Positions 3,618 to 24,102 of a stretch of DNA of 38,333 nt are shown piece after piece. Numbering within the stretch: the stretch's first letter is position 1; every line of letters starts with the position of its first letter. A program made the position numbers and the translations under genes. The notes under the pieces were generated by a model. That model had not been told where the DNA came from. It worked only from the letters and a program-made list of their open reading frames with translations, and made no database searches. The DNA is from a virus: IMG/VR virus record IMGVR_UViG_3300009960_000009, positions 1-38,333 of that record; one strand, written 5' to 3'.

Positions 3618-5873
3618 CTATTTTTTAGAACTTAGCTTGAATATGATTTTCATATTGCCTAAGAATGCCGTGATAGCTCCAGCAACAGCAAATATCTCAG
3701 TAATTCGGCTAGGAATAAACACCGACGTGACAACAGCTACCATACCTGCTAACGCAATACCAATGTCTGTAACAAAGTAAACCTTGTCTTTTACTTGCGT
3801 TGAGATTGTCGGCGAGTATTCAGTGTCGCCTACTTGTTTGTTAATATTTTCTTGAAATTTTTCTAGCTGAGCCATTTGCTCCTCCGTTAGTATTAATGGT
3901 TTATTACCTATTTCAGCTGGTTTTTCCACTTCACCGCTCCCATCTTTAGGCTTTTGCTCAGATTGCCCATTTCCTGGCTCTGCAGGAGGCGTTACATCTT
4001 GAGATGGCTGATTATTCGTCTCAGGTTGCTTCTGCGGCTCCTGCGAACTCTCAGGCTGCTCGTTTTTTGGCGCTTCTACCTGCTTTTTGAGCGGCTGAGG
4101 AGTTCCTGCATCATTTTCGCTGATTTCAGTCATCGGCTCTACGTCAATCCAGCAGTCCATGCCGCCAATATGAAGTTTTGCCATCCACTGCTCGCTTGTA
4201 TCGCTCTTGCCTAAATCAAGTACGCGATATTTACCAGGGATTTTGAATAGCTCGCCGACATTCAAGTCTTGGTCTGGTGTAGCGTAGCTTGCGCGGTCTA
4301 CCTCGACTAGCGGCTCTACTGGTACGCCATTATCTGACCACGTAAAGTCTTGCTTGCACAAAGTATTGCTACGAACTTGCCAAACGCCATCAACTATTTG
4401 CATGTCGTCCACCTGATAAATCCCATCGAACCTCACCCAGCTACCAACTTCAAGGTCTTGATCGACTGGATTATTTGGCGCAACTGGCGCTGGAGGATTA
4501 GAGCTACCGCCTCTGTAACGAAATACGCGCAGTTGCTTTACGCCAGCAGCGCTAGCAAAGGCGTCGTGGTTATTAACGCTCATACCGTAGCTAAAATTAC
4601 AATGAACGATATCGTTAGGGTTGATAAATATGCCTGTGTGAGCTCCGCCGCCTGGCGTCGTCCAATCTCCAGAGATTAGCCAGAGGAAAATGTCGCCGCG
4701 CTGAGCATCAATCGTGCCGTTAGCGTCGGCTGGTATTTCAGAAAACCCGTGAGCTGGCAGGTCGCTAAACATCCGTCCAGTCCAGCCAATCGGCGTACTA
4801 GGCGGGAGGATGCCGGCTGCTTTTAAAGCGTGATAGACTGCACTCGAGCAGTTACCGGTGATAAAAGGTGTGCCGTTGACACGTGCAACTATATATGTGC
4901 TCTCTACTGAGATACATGACACCATAGTCTCGCGAGTAGAGATTTTCTGGCCAAGGCTATAGCTTGGATTAGTATAGTAAGTCAACACATAGTAATCTGA
5001 GTAATTCTCGCTCCGGTTATCAACTATTTTTCGTTGTGTTGATTTGACGCCGTTGACAGTAAATACAGCCTGAACAGTATCTACATCTTTTTTATTTGTA
5101 GAGCCAAATAGCTTTCTTGCGCCGTAATCCGTGCCGTCCCACTTGTACAGCTCGTGGAAGAATACATCGAACTTATGTTCGTCGATGTTCACCCAGTCTT
5201 CTGTAAACGATTTGTCTTTCAGATACTTCTCTGCGAAATTATCAATAATGGTATTGTCATCAATCGTTATCTGAGCAGTATCATCCTTTAACTCATCGTA
5301 AATAGTGTATGTTAGGCCAATACTCTCTAATAGGTCGAGGAGCCTATTAATTTTCCTCTTCTTGCTGAGGTGAAAATGAACACGTGTTGTGTTGCCAGAT
5401 ATCTTTTTGTAGTGGCCGTCGGCTTGAATCGCCACAAGCAGCTTAAACTCATCATCAGATAGGTCATTCAGCGCTGTGTACGGCTTGTCCATAGTAGTCA
5501 TATCTGGCGTGATAACAGAATAGCTGTCCTTAATGTCACCCCATAACGCTTCTCGAATATAGTTTGTCTTCTTAGTGCGATACAGTACTCGGTGGCTATC
5601 AGTCGCTTCAAAGTCTCCACGGCGTGTGACTTCTGCCATATATGGCTCAACAACGTTCATGACCTTTGTTGGAGACAATTTGTTGGTTTTGACGTCATAT
5701 TGCACCACATCGTCGCCAACTGCGAACTCGCTCAGAGGTTTCCAGCCTGTCGGTGTAAGAAGTTCTGTACTGTCTAATGGCAGGCAGTCGTAACTCTCTG
5801 GTCCATTCCTATTCTCCATCGAGTAGCTAACTTTACCGACACGAGATAACATCCAGTTGATCGCTTGTTCCAT
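3618..5873 (-). CDS. Intein-containing NlpC/P60-CHAP-type cysteine peptidoglycan endopeptidase. It also carries an SH3b-like module, a Pro/Gln/Glu-rich linker and two C-terminal TM helices. Likely a virion-associated lysin or endolysin.
   Basis: Spliced extein reads ...NRNGPESYD|CSSAVYHALKAAGILPP...GDIFLWL...GGGAHTGIFINPNDIVHCN, a Cys/His NlpC-P60 signature. C-terminus IGIALAGMVAVVTSVFIP...IFAVAGAITAFLG is hydrophobic. AAGGAGAGG RBS. Confidence 0.8.
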   Translation of the reverse strand: MEQAINWMLSRVGKVSYSMENRNGPESYDCLPLDSTELLTPTGWKPLSEFAVGDDVVQYDVKTNKLSPTKVMNVVEPYMAEVTRRGDFEATDSHRVLYRTKKTNYIREALWGDIKDSYSVITPDMTTMDKPYTALNDLSDDEFKLLVAIQADGHYKKISGNTTRVHFHLSKKRKINRLLDLLESIGLTYTIYDELKDDTAQITIDDNTIIDNFAEKYLKDKSFTEDWVNIDEHKFDVFFHELYKWDGTDYGARKLFGSTNKKDVDTVQAVFTVNGVKSTQRKIVDNRSENYSDYYVLTYYTNPSYSLGQKISTRETMVSCISVESTYIVARVNGTPFITGNCSSAVYHALKAAGILPPSTPIGWTGRMFSDLPAHGFSEIPADANGTIDAQRGDIFLWLISGDWTTPGGGAHTGIFINPNDIVHCNFSYGMSVNNHDAFASAAGVKQLRVFRYRGGSSNPPAPVAPNNPVDQDLEVGSWVRFDGIYQVDDMQIVDGVWQVRSNTLCKQDFTWSDNGVPVEPLVEVDRASYATPDQDLNVGELFKIPGKYRVLDLGKSDTSEQWMAKLHIGGMDCWIDVEPMTEISENDAGTPQPLKKQVEAPKNEQPESSQEPQKQPETNNQPSQDVTPPAEPGNGQSEQKPKDGSGEVEKPAEIGNKPLILTEEQMAQLEKFQENINKQVGDTEYSPTISTQVKDKVYFVTDIGIALAGMVAVVTSVFIPSRITEIFAVAGAITAFLGNMKIIFKLSSKK
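4851..5786 (-). mobile_element. Intein (~312 aa, residues 30-341 of the lysin) with a LAGLIDADG-type homing-endonuclease core. It is inserted immediately before the catalytic Cys of the NlpC/P60 domain.
   Basis: Block A is CLPLDSTELLTPTGWKPLSEFAVGDDVV (Cys1 codon 5784..5786). Block B is EATDSHRVL (TxxH). The endonuclease motif is FKLLVAIQADGHYKK. C-terminal block ...YIVARVNGTPFITGN precedes +1 Cys (Asn codon 4851..4853, +1 Cys TGC 4848..4850). The penultimate residue is Gly, not His. Confidence 0.75.
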
Positions 5874-8029: not shown

Positions 8030-9373
8030 TTATGCAGATTCTCGCGGGTCTCCTAAATATTCTGCGAGCCCAGCGGTAGGAGCTAAAGCGCCAAGCCCTA
8101 GCACGTACGGTGATTTGCCGCGCTTGCCAGTCTTAGCTAAATAGGATAGCGCCAAATCTAAATCACCTTTATCGACGTATTTATTGATGTTATTGACGCC
8201 TAGCTTTTTCAAATCGTCTATTACTTGCTGTGACGAGCCTTCTGGAATATAGGCGCTATGGAATTCGTTGCCGCCAACTACACGGCGGGGTTTTGCTTCA
8301 AAATACGAAACGGGCACTTCTTTGTACAATTTTTTTAAATTAGTTACGTCATCTGCGACGTCATTAGGTAATTCACTTTTAGCAGCTTTTAGCTTGCTGG
8401 GGCTTTTCAGCGCGTCATTAAGGTACTCTGTAGCGCTATCATCTAGCCCAAAGTTTAGCCCCTCAAATTGCGGTAAGTCAGATTCTTTGACACGCTCAAG
8501 AACGTTGCTAAATAAATTATCAGCAACCTCTTTTGTCGCTTCTCCAGTTCGATTATCTATTAACCTGTACTTATTTTTATATAAATCATCTAAGCTATTG
8601 AGCTTTCTTGTGTTGTCAATGTAGGCTTGCGTATTAGGAGGTGTCCACCCCTGCTCACCGCTAATAGCAGCTAGTTCATTCATGGCGTCACTTGCATTTT
8701 GGGCTGTAAGAGGCAGCTCCTTTTCTGTTCCGCGTTTATTAGTATATTTTATTATTTTGTCGCCGCGTAATTTATCAAGATTCTCTTGAGCAAATTTATT
8801 AAATTCAGGATTGCCTCTAATCTCTGACGTGTATGCATCAGCAAATTGCGGATTTTGCAGCTGAAAAGCGTCTCGCATGGCTGGGCTGTAAAGCTCGTCC
8901 AGGTCCAAATTACTCCTAGCAGAGGCGTTGGACATATTATTGGCTGCCGCAAATTCTCTCAGCGCATCATCGTTCATTTTATATGTTGTGTTTGGAAAAC
9001 GCGGCGAATAAATATCTCGGTCGCCAAGTATCACTTTAGAAGCTGCGTTAGCTGGGTCTACCATGTCTCGGTTAGCCACCATTACGATGTCGCCAAAGTC
9101 GCTACCTGGCAAAAAATTGGTACCTTTATTGGCGTCAACAACAGCCATAGACGGCTGCACAAAACCTCCTAAATCGGCCGCTCCACGCAGTTTTTCGGGC
9201 GTTAGTTGGTGAGTTGCGATTAGATTACCGTACTTATCAGCAATATCATCAGCACTGTTTTTGGACATAAACTTAATAACGTCGTCAGAATAATTAGACG
9301 CTATTTTATCAGCAACGTCGTCGCCGGCGTTCTTGAATATTCCGCTAAACAATCGGCTCAGGCTGCTCATCAC
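8030..9373 (-). CDS. Hypothetical head-morphogenesis or minor virion protein.
   Basis: 447-aa ORF directly downstream of, and overlapping, the portal candidate. Confidence 0.4.
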   Translation of the reverse strand: MMSSLSRLFSGIFKNAGDDVADKIASNYSDDVIKFMSKNSADDIADKYGNLIATHQLTPEKLRGAADLGGFVQPSMAVVDANKGTNFLPGSDFGDIVMVANRDMVDPANAASKVILGDRDIYSPRFPNTTYKMNDDALREFAAANNMSNASARSNLDLDELYSPAMRDAFQLQNPQFADAYTSEIRGNPEFNKFAQENLDKLRGDKIIKYTNKRGTEKELPLTAQNASDAMNELAAISGEQGWTPPNTQAYIDNTRKLNSLDDLYKNKYRLIDNRTGEATKEVADNLFSNVLERVKESDLPQFEGLNFGLDDSATEYLNDALKSPSKLKAAKSELPNDVADDVTNLKKLYKEVPVSYFEAKPRRVVGGNEFHSAYIPEGSSQQVIDDLKKLGVNNINKYVDKGDLDLALSYLAKTGKRGKSPYVLGLGALAPTAGLAEYLGDPRESA

Positions 9374-16102: not shown

Positions 16103-17539
16103 TTACACATCTTCGACAAACGGCAGCGCTAGTTTAACTGATAGTAGCTGCGCGGCTGCTGAGTGCGAGTTAATCACTGCCTCTTCAATAGCTTTTGCGC
16201 TGTCTACAATACCAGCTTCTACTACATCTACAGTCTCGCCAGTTTCGATATTGGTGCCGGTATTATCTTTAAAGACTGAATCGCTGGCTGAGCGGTTAGT
16301 TAGTAGTTCGAAAGGTTTTTTGAAATAATCGAGTTCTAATTTTTTCAAGAATACGCCACCGCCTGGCAAAACGCCATAGTCAAAGGCGGTGCGAGCTGCG
16401 CAAACAGCATCTTCAATGCGAAGTTTTAGTTCTTGACGCTCAGCTTGAGTTGGCGCACCGACAGAAATTCGTACGGTTTTGCCGAGCAAACGCTCGCGAC
16501 GTTCGGTCGAATCAACGCTTTTAGCATATTCAGCTAATGAATCTGGGGAGGTACAACCTGTCAGTGTGGTTTCTGTCAATGAGATAAAAGCAGAATTTAC
16601 AGTGCCTACGTATTCTTCAACGTCAAAATCATCGGCGTTACCAGTATACTGCTCTGTCGATGCGTATTTGGCTATGTCGTTCAAGAACGCGTCGCGGTCT
16701 AATGCGATTGGCTCAACAATAGCAATATCTAAATTACCTTTAAGTTTATTAGCCACGATAGTCTCTAATGCTTGGCCAGATACGTCGGCAACTAACAAAA
16801 TAGGCGATTTATCAGCGCGCAAGCATTTGTCAAGGATAGGCAAGATATCTTCACTTTTAGAAATAAGTTTTGGCAAAACGATGATGGCTGGGTTGTCATA
16901 CTGAGTACGCAGCGTCTGTAGATTGTCTGCTAATGCTGGCACTCGTAATCCCTTTTTAAAAGTAAACCCGTTAATCGTTTCAGACGATATCTGATTTTCT
17001 GGAGTTTCGACAACAGCGACGCTGCCGAGCTTACCGACGCTCGACACCGCATCTGCTACCATCTCACCGATAGCTGTATCGCCAGCAGAAATTACTGAGA
17101 CATGGCGCAGCAGTTCGTCGTTACATTCTAGCTTTTCTGCTTCAATTTTTTTCAGCACTTCGGCCACCGTCTGATTAATACGGCGCTGAGCTTCACGCGG
17201 CGTCAGGTCTTGTCTGCGCCAGTAATCGTACGCCAATTTCGTGAGCACGATTGTGAGCGTTGTAGAATCGCCAGCATTTCGATTAGTTCGCTCGCTAGCT
17301 TGTCTAACCACTGAAATAACCGAATTTTCGATTGAATCTTCTATAACTAAGTTTTTGACGTTAGTGATGCCGTCGTGCGAAATTAACGGCTCGCCAAAAC
17401 GCGGCTCAATCATGACGTTGCCAGAGTTAGCGCCGTATGAGGCCAACGCGACCTCGCAAATCGCGTTAACACCATTTTCAACAGACTTCTGGATTTTTTC
17501 GCCAGAAACGATTTTTCTGATTAAATTACGCTTTGGCAT
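16103..17539 (-). CDS. groL: Phage-encoded GroEL-family chaperonin (Cpn60), 478 aa. It lacks the GGM tail.
   Basis: NAGDSTTLTIVLTKLA resembles the GroEL AGDGTTTATVL motif. IEDAVCAARTAFDYGVLPGGGVFL resembles [23 protein letters not shown]. C-terminal AAAQLLSVKLAL. Confidence 0.8.
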   Translation of the reverse strand: MPKRNLIRKIVSGEKIQKSVENGVNAICEVALASYGANSGNVMIEPRFGEPLISHDGITNVKNLVIEDSIENSVISVVRQASERTNRNAGDSTTLTIVLTKLAYDYWRRQDLTPREAQRRINQTVAEVLKKIEAEKLECNDELLRHVSVISAGDTAIGEMVADAVSSVGKLGSVAVVETPENQISSETINGFTFKKGLRVPALADNLQTLRTQYDNPAIIVLPKLISKSEDILPILDKCLRADKSPILLVADVSGQALETIVANKLKGNLDIAIVEPIALDRDAFLNDIAKYASTEQYTGNADDFDVEEYVGTVNSAFISLTETTLTGCTSPDSLAEYAKSVDSTERRERLLGKTVRISVGAPTQAERQELKLRIEDAVCAARTAFDYGVLPGGGVFLKKLELDYFKKPFELLTNRSASDSVFKDNTGTNIETGETVDVVEAGIVDSAKAIEEAVINSHSAAAQLLSVKLALPFVEDV

Positions 17540-17813
17540 CGAAACCTCGCAATTCTTTTAATGGCAAAAATACATACTCGTCGTCGCCAATTTTGATTGG
17601 CTCGCCTTCATTAAACGGCTCGAAATAAACAGTTTTGCCAACTGCCATATCATACGAATACATTGCTTTTAATTCTGTATCTTTACCTGTTTTGAAGTCA
17701 ATCATAACACCGCAACTTCGCCGTTCAAATCTCTGCTTTTCGCTGGACAGTCCCGAAGCATATTTCTTTTCGAGCCGTATAAGCGCGTAACCTGGTAATG
17801 GCTTCAAATTCAT
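17526..17813 (-). CDS. groS: GroES-like co-chaperonin (Cpn10).
   Basis: MNLKPLPGYALIRLEK... VGKTVYFEPFNEGEPIKIGDDEYVFLPLKELRGF has the GroES pattern. 14-nt overlap with groL. Conserved translation-initiation element upstream. Confidence 0.7.
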   Translation of the reverse strand: MNLKPLPGYALIRLEKKYASGLSSEKQRFERRSCGVMIDFKTGKDTELKAMYSYDMAVGKTVYFEPFNEGEPIKIGDDEYVFLPLKELRGFDAKA

Positions 17814-22411: not shown

Positions 22412-22617
22412 GTGTGCCAGGAACAAAAGTGGGCGGACTCAAAGCTCGCGAGACAAACTTAAAGAATAACCCCAATTTCTATCGTGAAATTGGTAAACTG
22501 GGGGGGCAGAAGTGTTGCAGGAAAGGTTTTGCTGTCAATCCAGAGCTAGCACGAATAGTTGGCGCTAAAGGCGGTAGAAAAAGCCGGAGGAGTAAGAAAA
22601 CAAATGTTACGATATAG
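22412..22617 (+). CDS. KGG-repeat stress-protein homologue (YciG / con-10 family), GTG start.
   Basis: AAGGAG then GTG. NPNFYREIGKLGGQK...GFAVNPELARIVGAKGGRKS has the duplicated KGG motif. Confidence 0.5.
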
Positions 22618-22676
22618 AAGAAAACAGAGAAGACTGGTTGATTTATTTTGGAATTAAGAAAGGAGAACAAGAATAA

Positions 22677-22799
22677 TGTCGGCGATGACAGTAGTCTCTT
22701 GGATTGGCGCAGTATTGCTTGGAGCTATCGCAATTTTAGTGTTAGTAGCGACCATTATATTGGTTGTGATTGTCATAAGAGCAATAATCGAAACGTAAA
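22677..22799 (+). CDS. Small hydrophobic membrane protein (40 aa, MSAMTVVSWIGAVLLGAIAILVLVATIILVVIVIRAIIET). It is not in the track.
   Basis: AAAGGAG RBS 8 nt upstream of ATG. One TM helix. Confidence 0.5.
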
Positions 22800-23640
22800 C
22801 GCCATTAACCAATGACCTGTCATATGTCGAAAAACTGGGCTAGATTAAACCAATTTCCCCACTTGGGAAAAATGGTTTAGAACATTAACAATTCGACCGC
22901 ATAACTGGATAGACAACTGAGGTCTCGCCTTAGAACCGTGCCATTCCCGAGAGGACATGGAAGGTTGTCTATTCAACTGGACAGATGATATGCACATCCT
23001 TTCCTAGGGCGCGCCAACGCCACCTCGGCGCGTGACCGAAAAATCGTGAAACGTTGTGAGTCAGTTTTTAAACATTTTCAATGCGGTGCAACGTGTATCG
23101 TCTGTTCAACTGGTAGCATCAGTACCTTCAAACGACCAACGCCAAAAGGCGCAAATACTGTAGCGCTGGTGCTATCAAATGGCAATATCAGTGTCTAAGC
23201 CTTTTATTTGCTTATAGAATTGAGCGCAGGTGGAAATCGGCTCAATCTGGTGTTGTCACTGGCTATATAAGTGGCGGAATAGGTAGACGCTCATAAGCAG
23301 CAGGTTAAGAGTTATTGGATAGCCAACTCAAAGAAACCAAAAGTGCCGTATGAAAAATAGCGCAGCTGCTCGGAAATTGTGATGTGACTATACGAGTACT
23401 GAAACGACGCTACAGTAGCATTATTGCTAACGCGTGAAGGATTGAAGCCTCTTGTCAAATCATCACCTTATATAGCCGATACTGGCAATAGTTGAAGCAT
23501 CTGCCGTAACGAGACAGCTCTGCGTGCGAGGTTGTGTACCAAAGTGTTAGCTTGACCGTCAGGAATTAAAAGAAGCAACCTTAAAGTATCCACCGCTCTT
23601 GCCAGTACCAGTTATGCGGTTGAATATAAGAATAATAAGG
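22800..23640. ncRNA. ORF-free ~840-bp region with multiple local and long-range inverted repeats. Candidate structured ncRNA or cis-acting element.
   Basis: No ORF >=60 aa in any frame. ATAGACAAC (22909) pairs with GTTGTCTAT (22966). CGCGCC pairs with GGCGCG (23010-23035). GGCTATATAAG (23261) pairs with CTTATATAGCC (23468). CAACTGG recurs 3 times. Confidence 0.35.
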
Positions 23641-23661
23641 AGAAGATAAAGAAAGAGCTAT

Positions 23662-24102
23662 ATGGGATTCATGATAACAATCAAAGTAGATGGCGGGAAA
23701 GAGCTGTATATATCAAATGGCTACGGAGATTTTTCGGTTGGTCCTCTTGATAAACTAGCTCGTAAGTATCGGCACACTGGTACTTATGATGACCAAGATG
23801 GGTGCTTTGAAGTAGAGATACCCAATGTTGATAACCTGGCAGACGCATTGGCTGAGATTCAGCAAATAGCTGAAGAGAAGATTGGCGAGAGAGTTTGGAA
23901 CTTAAAACTTGACATATCGTACGACCAAGATTCTAAACAATACGTTGCAGACCAAATTGGTCTTGACGATGGCTGCTATGCCTTGGTTGTTGGTAGAGTG
24001 TTTAACTATCTGTTTGAACAGGGCTGTTTACGTTTTGATGGCACCACTAAAAGTGGCTTTAGACTGAAAGACGGTAAGAAGATTATCTTAAGGGGTAGTT
24101 AA
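23662..24102 (+). CDS. Hypothetical protein.
   Basis: AAGGAG RBS. A degenerate copy of the conserved translation-initiation element (ATAAAGAAAGAGCTATATG) lies upstream. Confidence 0.5.
   Translation: MGFMITIKVDGGKELYISNGYGDFSVGPLDKLARKYRHTGTYDDQDGCFEVEIPNVDNLADALAEIQQIAEEKIGERVWNLKLDISYDQDSKQYVADQIGLDDGCYALVVGRVFNYLFEQGCLRFDGTTKSGFRLKDGKKIILRGS

Follow-up and report, generated by a model that had tools for sequence, protein, structure and literature searches.

A modular array of hairpin and tRNA-like RNA cassettes, held inside a conserved closing helix, in a Saccharibacteria phage genome

Why should a phage whose genes are packed tightly leave some 860 nucleotides (nt) free of them? The window analysed here is the whole of IMG/VR virus record IMGVR_UViG_3300009960_000009, a stretch of 38,333 nt, and the question concerns its positions 22799-23661. 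A preliminary description made from the letters alone had called this an island without open reading frames (ORFs) in a gene-dense genome, and it is one. With a cut-off of 60 amino acids (aa) no ORF overlaps 22799-23661 in any of the six frames of the two strands, and the gap between ORFs of at least 60 aa, which spans 22671-23661, is the only one of at least 350 nt in the window. The ORFs that flank the region encode 40 aa (22676-22798, + strand) and 146 aa (23662-24102, + strand). The same description guessed at a large structured noncoding RNA. The evidence presented here supports something more specific: hairpin and tRNA-like cassettes, arranged as a modular array within a conserved closing helix. 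As to what such an array would be, we give about an even chance to a derived phage tRNA island: a co-transcribed array of tRNA-like and minihelix RNAs closed by a processing stalk.

The longest pairing of the region had been overlooked. The 5' arm ATTCGACCGCATAACTGG (22891-22908, + strand) pairs with the 3' arm CCAGTTATGCGGTTGAAT (23608-23625, + strand) over 18 nt at 94% complementarity across a distance of 699 nt. This inverted repeat (I1) closes the whole domain and encloses an element of about 735 nt. The helix is present in the minimum free energy (MFE) fold of the + strand, and when 22891-23625 is folded without constraint the outcome is the closing helix with six top-level hairpin domains inside it. 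The MFE of the region on the + strand is -255 kcal/mol (z = -3.1 against 20 dinucleotide shuffles; z = -2.1 for the - strand). The inverted repeats that the preliminary description did name are all there: ATAGACAAC/GTTGTCTAT (I9) at 22906-22917 and 22964-22975 with 46 nt between the arms, CGCGCC/GGCGCG at about 23010-23034, and GGCTATATAAG/CTTATATAGCC (I11) at 23261-23271 and 23467-23477 with a separation of 195 nt. Its three copies of CAACTGG are not, since the exact heptamer occurs twice in the region (22974 and 23107); the shorter AACTGG has four copies, at 22833, 22903, 22975 and 23108.

Relatives of the element come from IMG/VR contigs and from contigs of Candidatus Saccharibacteria metagenome-assembled genomes (MAGs). 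A search with the flanking proteins gave 96 IMG/VR loci. Compared with these by BLAST the region is a mosaic, different loci matching different sub-segments of it. In 33 loci the arms TTCAACCGCATAACTGG and CCAGTTATGCGGTTGA enclose interiors of 26-758 nt, and a further scan with the 3' arm brought the collection to 100 distinct elements of 126-792 nt. Both arms and a junction motif are near-invariant across the relatives and the interior is hypervariable. Past the 3' arm the sequences diverge at once, often with a ribosome-binding site and start codon directly there. (ORF gaps in the relatives are uninformative, because chance ORFs of 60 aa split them.) When the arms of the 100 elements are scored, position 10 in the 16-nt core of the closing helix is G-C in 50, U-A in 48 and mismatched in 2, so that one pair has been cleanly exchanged for the other by compensatory change. 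At position 8, C-G (58 elements) alternates with U·G (42). Over all cells of the helix about 69 are of the G·U type and about 13 of the A·C type.

The interior follows a grammar of its own. Each element was folded with the closing helix enforced, and the top-level hairpins were then clustered. The result is an ordered series of slots, each with its own conserved basal stem and with apical parts that are unrelated alternatives. The basal stem reads RYAGAYRAY... in slot 1, ACAGAUGAU/AUCGUCUGU in slot 2, UAGCAYCA/UGGUGCUA in slot 3, CAACAUCA/GGUGUUG in slot 4 and CUAUAUAAG/CUUAUAUAG in slot 5; slot 6 is optional. Slots can be missing, none is universal, and an element has 2-7 cassettes. The alternatives differ in size too, slot 1 measuring 26, 64, 83, 85, 109 or 120 nt among relatives. 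The cassette junction is the near-invariant (U)CAACUGG, and its DNA form CAACTGG is 56 times as dense inside elements as outside them (4.8 against 0.086 per kb). The UGG before a stem can pair with the UCA after it, so that only AC is left unpaired. A second class of elements has AGG and CCU as the corresponding flanks, which is consistent with covariation at the outermost pair.

Folding and clustering place six hairpin cassettes inside the closing helix of the window, all on the + strand, and their covariation was judged from pair counts on 8-37 sequences per family. Cassette 2 (slot 2, family F1, 22978-23108), two hairpins on the basal stem UGGACAGAUGAUAU/GUGUAUCGUCUGUUCA, is found in 37 distinct relatives. 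An alignment of 19 sequences has 95.9% of its cells paired, and 11 pairs have changed on both sides; column shuffles give 5.3 ± 1.2 such pairs, and 0 of 500 reached the observed count. As a control, sliding the partners by 1-3 columns leaves only 19-57% pairing. U·G is nearly fixed at three pairs of this cassette. Each of cassettes 1, 3, 5 and 6 shows at least one compensatory change relative to its relatives. Cassette 1 (slot 1, F46, 22909-22972, z = -2.6) has two inner hairpins on a 9-bp (base pair) basal stem, ATAGACAAC/GTTGTCTAT. An exact-match scan of IMG/VR gave no match to it, and a metagenome scan found it on two metagenome contigs, one of them with an A-U to G-C compensatory change; in other relatives the slot holds an 85-nt tRNA-like RNA or other versions. 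Cassette 3 (slot 3, F9, 23111-23177, z = -4.0) stands on UGGUAGCAUCAG/CUGGUGCUAUCA, a stem with C-G to G-C swaps in eight distinct relatives (CAUCAG/CUGGUG versus CACGAG/CUCGUG). Cassette 4 (slot 4, F15, 23180-23258, z = -3.6), on UGGCAAUAUCAG/CUGGUGUUGUCA, folds at -26.2 kcal/mol on the + strand against -11.9 on the - strand, and in relatives its interior can sit on the basal stem of slot 3 or on that of slot 4. Cassette 5 (slot 5, F10, 23260-23478) is a cloverleaf-like four-way junction in the consensus fold of 10 relatives, with a 12-bp acceptor-like stem UGGCUAUAUAAG/CUUAUAUAGCCG, a D-arm-like hairpin GGCGGAAUAGGUAGACGCU and the arms AGCAGC/GCUGCU and GUGAUG/CAUCAC; its sub-hairpins are exchanged as modules among relatives. 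Cassette 6 (optional slot 6, F11, 23480-23607), with the stem ACUGGCAA/UUGCCAGU, is followed by A and then by the CCA that opens the 3' arm, and a compensatory change, C-G to U-A, sets the window apart from relatives (GGUUGC...GCAGCC versus GGUUGU...GCAACC).

The structured RNA of the preliminary description, which had proposed a search for covariation in related phages, therefore stands as far as the compensatory changes, the G·U pairs that point to the + strand and the replacement of hairpin by hairpin in relatives are concerned. A single fixed ribozyme-like fold looks improbable, because no single slot is common to all elements.

Could the region instead be occupied by short protein genes that annotation missed, or by genes that use a different genetic code? 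ORFs of 35-50 aa are indeed present on both strands, and we still find the idea extremely improbable. Each frame of 22799-23661 has 11-20 stops. TAA, TAG and TGA are mixed in all six frames, so recoding of a single stop cannot create a gene there and an alternative code is out. The longest ORF per element differs in strand and length across the 100 relatives, the indels in cassette alignments are not multiples of three, and the best of six short ORFs searched against PHROGs reaches an insignificant E-value of 0.055. The short conserved coding genes that the preliminary description had weighed against an RNA do not fill the region, the short ORFs being neither conserved nor matched in PHROGs, and no frame is seen to be kept with a bias towards synonymous substitution.

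Around this core lie parts that vary in their own way. Upstream, the block ACGCCATTAACCAATGACC...GAAAAACTGGGC (22799-22842, + strand), which ends in AACTGG, is about 85-90% identical in many relatives and is kept even in those in which the rest of the element is different; it contains no consensus promoter. The 5' flank GAACATTAACA (22880-22890, + strand) is kept by nearly all the relatives that share the main genomic context. Between the two the window has a small optional hairpin of 16 bp, TAAACCAATTTCCCCA/TGGGAAAAATGGTTTA (22846-22879, + strand; inverted repeat I5; MFE z = -5.7), missing from most relatives, where GGGC adjoins GAACATTAACA directly. Some relatives have a different hairpin at this position, AATCGGGTACAAATCGTACCCAG, or both, so the position behaves as a further optional cassette site.

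Elements with the same arms also occur in a second genomic context, without the GAACATTAACA flank. These are short, 139-189 nt, and have two cassettes (contig L296 8467-8605; L295 6792-6930; L228 2381-2520; L284 7078-7266). L296 has two elements, the short one about 130 nt from a tRNA-Asn gene (8263-8339). At L008 510-560 and L009 3892-3945 the arms alone form a simple hairpin with almost no interior (TTCAACCGCATAA TATAGCCAA CCAGTTATGCGGTTGA), either a deletion derivative or an ancestral state. Within the window, CCAACGCCA occurs twice as a direct repeat (D10), in a hairpin loop of cassette 2 (23014-23022) and in an internal loop of cassette 3 (23136-23144); this may be chance or a shared binding motif.

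In which molecule is the structure selected? On the other strand the nearly fixed U·G pairs would turn into A·C mismatches, so the selection should act on RNA made from the + strand, which is also the strand of all flanking genes, and the compensatory changes together with the strong excess of G·U over A·C indicate the same. In gene-oriented loci 54 of 54 elements lie on the gene strand. The region has no terminator-like site on the + strand, and the only + strand promoter-like site is at 22648-22677, upstream of the 40-aa ORF, in a scan whose overall count is not above that of shuffles. The promoter and intrinsic terminator of its own that would mark a stand-alone small RNA gene are thus not found. 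In many relatives the 3' arm directly adjoins the ribosome-binding site of the next gene. Given this abutment and the lack of its own promoter and terminator, the element appears to be carried within the + strand early operon transcript. We consider the anatomy, the strand and the selection on structure to be well supported. Directly after the 3' arm many relatives (e.g. L016, L157, L011) have a conserved strong hairpin, CCCGTAGAGCGTTTTATCTAAAAAACACGCTCTACGGG, which is not in the window; it has no U tail and so is not a standard intrinsic terminator.

The same arms could be read as DNA. The element would then be a replication origin, a packaging site, a recombination hot spot or something like a miniature inverted-repeat transposable element (MITE) with terminal inverted repeats of 16-18 bp. 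Its terminal repeats are perfect or nearly so, 18 nt in the window and kept in 100 elements, and it adjoins a module of exonuclease, RecT and SSB. It occurs in a second genomic context and sometimes twice per contig, and its mosaic interior suggests frequent recombination. Nevertheless, we hold a DNA element to be improbable, because the pairing is strand-asymmetric, with U·G at helix position 8 in 42% of elements and at the three near-invariant pairs of cassette 2, and because compensatory changes lie within the hairpins and matches to tRNA models lie in the slots. There are no tandem repeats or iterons and no AT-rich dip (GC is 0.42-0.45, as in the rest of the genome). Neither genomic context shows a target-site duplication, nor did an empty site turn up. 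Among the 46 window ORFs scanned against Pfam and PHROGs (a few small ORFs lay outside the scan) none matches an integrase, recombinase or transposase. The packaging site and second origin that had been suggested earlier are disfavoured by the asymmetry of the pairing, the lack of repeats and the ordinary base composition. Two repeat systems were also considered and rejected. CCAGTTG can be read as the GTTRRRY core of an integron attC site, but this suits only a part of the junctions, the order of the slots does not change and the scanned ORFs include no integrase. A type III antitoxin array or CRISPR would be repetitive, and Tandem Repeats Finder gives 0 rows at a minimum score of 30, with only the junction motif of 7-8 nt recurring.

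What, then, are the cassettes? In the window itself no tRNA is recognized. ARAGORN, which had been proposed as a check, finds 0 tRNA and 0 transfer-messenger RNA (tmRNA) genes, the Rfam tRNA model has no match in 22600-23800 at E up to 10, and a pattern scan finds no T arm in the element. The preliminary description was right that no tRNA and no tRNA-like T arm are to be seen here; what it overlooked is the tRNA-island ancestry to which the relatives point. In their slots ARAGORN calls tRNA-Met, tRNA-Tyr and 'tRNA-???' with odd anticodon loops, and the Rfam tRNA matches in some of their cassettes score 35-48 bits against a gathering score of 29. A slot-1 family of 79-85 nt has an acceptor stem, a D arm, a GGTTCRAnTCC T arm and an abnormal anticodon arm, and one version of it is called tRNA-Met at 35 bits. 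A 109-nt version of slot 5 bears a GGTTCGATTCC T arm. In three elements the last slot is a tRNA-Tyr(GUA)-like gene (L017 3769-3854, with 48 bits; L232 3340-3425; L285 3523-3608), and the 3' CCA of this gene is formed by the first three bases of the closing-helix arm. In the main element class, one or two bases, as a rule A or AA, separate the last cassette from the CCA that opens the 3' arm. Slot 5 obeys this when it is the last cassette in relatives, A-CCA following it, and in the window it is followed by G-AUA-CUGG. If tRNA-like is taken to mean an acceptor-like stem, a D-arm-like hairpin and a 3' N-CCA, the slot 5 of the window has the stem and the hairpin and not the N-CCA; its cloverleaf-like fold also has an arm in the T-arm position. 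The cassettes that do not resemble tRNA have no match to any Rfam family.

We believe these observations are best joined as follows. The region would be transcribed with the + strand early operon and would then fold as RNA. The 18-bp long-range helix 22891-22908/23608-23625 would close a multi-helix junction, from which six cassettes would radiate, each on a basal stem of 12-14 bp and with AC linkers within UCA-AC-UGG. By analogy with rRNA operons, the closing helix would serve as a processing stalk at which the array is cut out of the messenger RNA. The acceptor-like minihelices would then be separated by enzymes of tRNA maturation (RNase P and RNase Z type), a step for which the T4 tRNA cluster is the model. 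The product would be a set of stable small RNAs that mimic tRNAs and do not decode. A mimic is likelier here than a supplier of codons, because every tRNA-like unit seen is defective as a decoder. We infer the transcription, the processing into separate small RNAs and the mimic role from the anatomy described above. Cassettes would be exchanged between phages by recombination in the conserved stems and junctions, which could offer the short homologies for exchange in phages that encode RecT. The many alleles found at each slot would suit an accessory function or one related to conflict.

Several points weigh against a derived tRNA island. The window's own cassettes match no tRNA model. The likeness of the slot-5 hairpin GGCGGAAUAGGUAGACGCU to the D arm of E. 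coli tRNA-Leu, a class II tRNA, is a presumed one. The slot-1 RNAs of relatives have 'anticodon' loops of 4, 6 or 8 nt, and in the Tyr-like RNA the acceptor pairs 2-71 and 3-70 are mismatched, pyrimidine against pyrimidine, in each of the three contigs, though the bases differ; the defective tRNA-like cassettes may simply be decaying genes. The internal junctions read U-CAAC and not N-CCA. With basal stems of at least 12 bp and with leader and trailer paired, the units are not standard substrates of RNase P or RNase Z. Most basal stems are invariant and so give no covariation signal of their own. The processing step is one that we purely infer.

If decay is taken as the whole story, the locus becomes a functionless remnant of a tRNA cluster, kept by linkage and shuffled by recombination. 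The defects of the tRNA-like cassettes as decoders, the highly variable content and the frequent loss of cassettes would all be explained. We strongly doubt it, however, because in 100 elements with differing flanking genes the arms, the junction motif and the basal stems are much better conserved than the sequence beside them, and pairings are held by compensatory change. Junk of 860 nt would also be expected to vanish quickly from a tightly packed 38-kb phage genome.

One could also go further than a derived island and propose a new class of phage RNA, a rack shuffled by recombination that shows tRNA mimics and hairpins on acceptor-like minihelix sockets. The payloads would be decoys or inhibitors of tRNA-directed enzymes, their cassettes diversifying under an arms race in Saccharibacteria. 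The mimics would include an anticodon-less cloverleaf that has a Leu-like D arm and an A-CCA end and that might be a substrate of tRNA enzymes. Host anticodon-nuclease defences and the phage's own PBECR5 virion protein (8030-9373) are candidate targets. In our opinion this is rather unlikely. If it is true that cassettes mimic tRNA against tRNA-targeting enzymes, this would be an RNA-based counter-defence with modular evolution.

The PBECR5 protein of 447 aa is encoded on the - strand in the head-morphogenesis block, and its PBECR5 domain (E = 1.2e-16) is the only match to an RNase fold, the fold of Barnase, EndoU, colicin E5/D and RelE-like RNases. The protein may be a phage-borne nuclease that acts on RNA or tRNA, and to link it to the tRNA-like array is speculation. 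Among the ORFs scanned no other RNA-handling enzyme of the kind looked for (RNA ligase, CCA-adding enzyme, Ro60) was found.

A different objection is that the element may not be cut at all. It could be one integrated large ornate RNA in the manner of GOLLD and ROOL, working whole, for example as a scaffold or oligomer, with the junction and basal stems as its core and the cassette tips as expansion segments. Such an RNA would fit the length of about 735 nt and the tight multi-way junction, whose linkers measure 2 nt, and also the near-constant sequence of the junctions and basal stems. It would fit the phage setting beside tRNA-like genes too, which is where GOLLD and ROOL occur (PMC12286853, PMC5737381). 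We think this unlikely, though it deserves to be taken seriously. No slot is universal, the number of cassettes runs from 2 to 7 and the length from 126 to 792 nt, and L008 and L009 have arms only. With slots, number and length all varying, a single conserved tertiary fold is unlikely, and slots are occupied by matches to tRNA models. Rfam, a scan also proposed in the preliminary description, finds no family in the window at gathering scores, and at E up to 10 it gives only three eukaryotic families at chance level (E of at least 0.035). GOLLD and ROOL are not matched at E up to 10 in the window or up to 1 in eight relatives, and a scan of 25 relatives finds tRNA only, in some of them, and neither GOLLD nor ROOL. 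The window likewise has no Rfam match to group I or II introns, known ribozymes or riboswitches, and tmRNA is found neither by Rfam nor by ARAGORN. If the element did prove to be one large RNA, it would be an additional class of ornate phage RNA.

How does this arrangement compare with what is known? The primary transcript of the T4 tRNA cluster, about 1.75 kb, gives rise to eight tRNAs and to the species I and II RNAs (PMC2330249). One long precursor thus yields several small RNAs in T4 (PMC2330249), and similar processing may take place here. Both loci are co-directional arrays of tRNAs or tRNA-like units in a phage transcription unit, with partly unknown roles and with mosaic content between related phages. 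Unlike the T4 cluster, the window has no recognizable tRNA, is enclosed by a helix of 16-18 bp, and has slot-specific stems of about 12 bp with an invariant UCA-AC-UGG junction. We know of no such arrangement of helix, stems and junction in clusters of the T4 type.

In the phages that have them, GOLLD and ROOL lie near tRNA islands, and the linker of GOLLD sometimes holds tRNAs (PMC12286853, PMC5737381). The element resembles them in being several hundred nt long, multi-junction, encoded by phages or prophages and near tRNA islands or tRNA matches, a likeness of context only and not of membership. It differs in having no covariance-model match and no large universal core, and in varying through replacement of whole cassettes and through cassette number.

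Long-range helices that flank structured RNAs in a polycistronic transcript are familiar from the stalks of rRNA operons and from RNase III sites of the T7 type. The closing helix is like them in this respect, but it has only 16-18 bp and surrounds hairpin cassettes, not rRNA. Among the tRNA-like structures of viruses, the TMERs of murine gammaherpesvirus 68 join a viral tRNA-like module to hairpins, are matured by host tRNA enzymes and do not decode. They are eukaryotic Pol III units with their own promoters and no closing helix, they have no slot grammar, and there is no homology to the element here. Paired conserved ends around a variable number of modules are also seen in the pneumococcal BOX elements (boxA, a variable number of boxB, boxC) and in MITEs. 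In BOX one module is repeated in many dispersed copies; here the slots differ from each other, a phage has one or two copies and the pairing is strand-specific.

We found no paper on an RNA element in Saccharibacteria phages, a statement that does not extend to the IMG/VR catalogue of structured RNAs (PMC10690425), which was not compared. That large screen reported many short tRNA-like candidates (PMC10690425). The kind of thing described here, phage tRNA-like RNAs and tRNA islands, is therefore known; the combination of closing helix, invariant junction and slot sockets with exchangeable payloads appears to be undescribed. Phage tRNA islands and GOLLD or ROOL RNAs have functions that are largely unexplained, and this locus links both ideas. 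Its grammar is simple (a closing stalk, an invariant junction, slot-specific sockets and swappable payloads), and the roughly 100 natural variants are a ready-made mutational series.

Where does the element live? The gene content of the window in Pfam and PHROGs and its TM7 phage relative make it a phage genome, with a portal protein, a large terminase, an endolysin and a Cpn60/Cpn10 pair elsewhere in it. As had been described, exonuclease, RecT and SSB lie upstream of the region and small + strand genes downstream; a gene for a KGG-repeat protein follows among the neighbours. The only phage relative in GenBank is TM7 phage DolZOral124_53_65 (MG269973), and it is a relative at the protein level. 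One structural protein is 50% identical, and structural genes have 65-71% nucleotide identity. The noncoding region and 20 kb of the window have no DNA match among GenBank phages. MG269973 has gaps near its own KGG-repeat gene, but neither a long-range helix of this sort nor a tRNA or a match in Rfam was found in it. In a genome-wide scan, contigs of Candidatus Saccharibacteria MAGs are the only genome contigs with perfect inverted pairs of the 16-nt arm. The neighbouring phage genes lie on them too, which argues that the host belongs to the Saccharibacteria (TM7). Saccharibacteria are ultrasmall episymbionts of the human mouth, and the biology of their phages is almost unknown. Some of the related sequence is on Saccharibacteria MAG contigs of 118-147 kb, which may reflect integration or joins made in binning or assembly.

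Two other features of the genome are recorded here. The endolysin (3618-5873, - strand) is a protein of 751 aa with an Amidase_5 domain and a ZoocinA target-recognition domain. Its residues 149-215 match LAGLIDADG_3 at 23.0 bits against a Pfam cut-off of 22.5, which suggests a possible intein or homing-endonuclease insertion. The chaperonin pair Cpn60 and Cpn10 is encoded at 16103-17813 (- strand), and Cpn60 is annotated in TM7 phage MG269973 as well.

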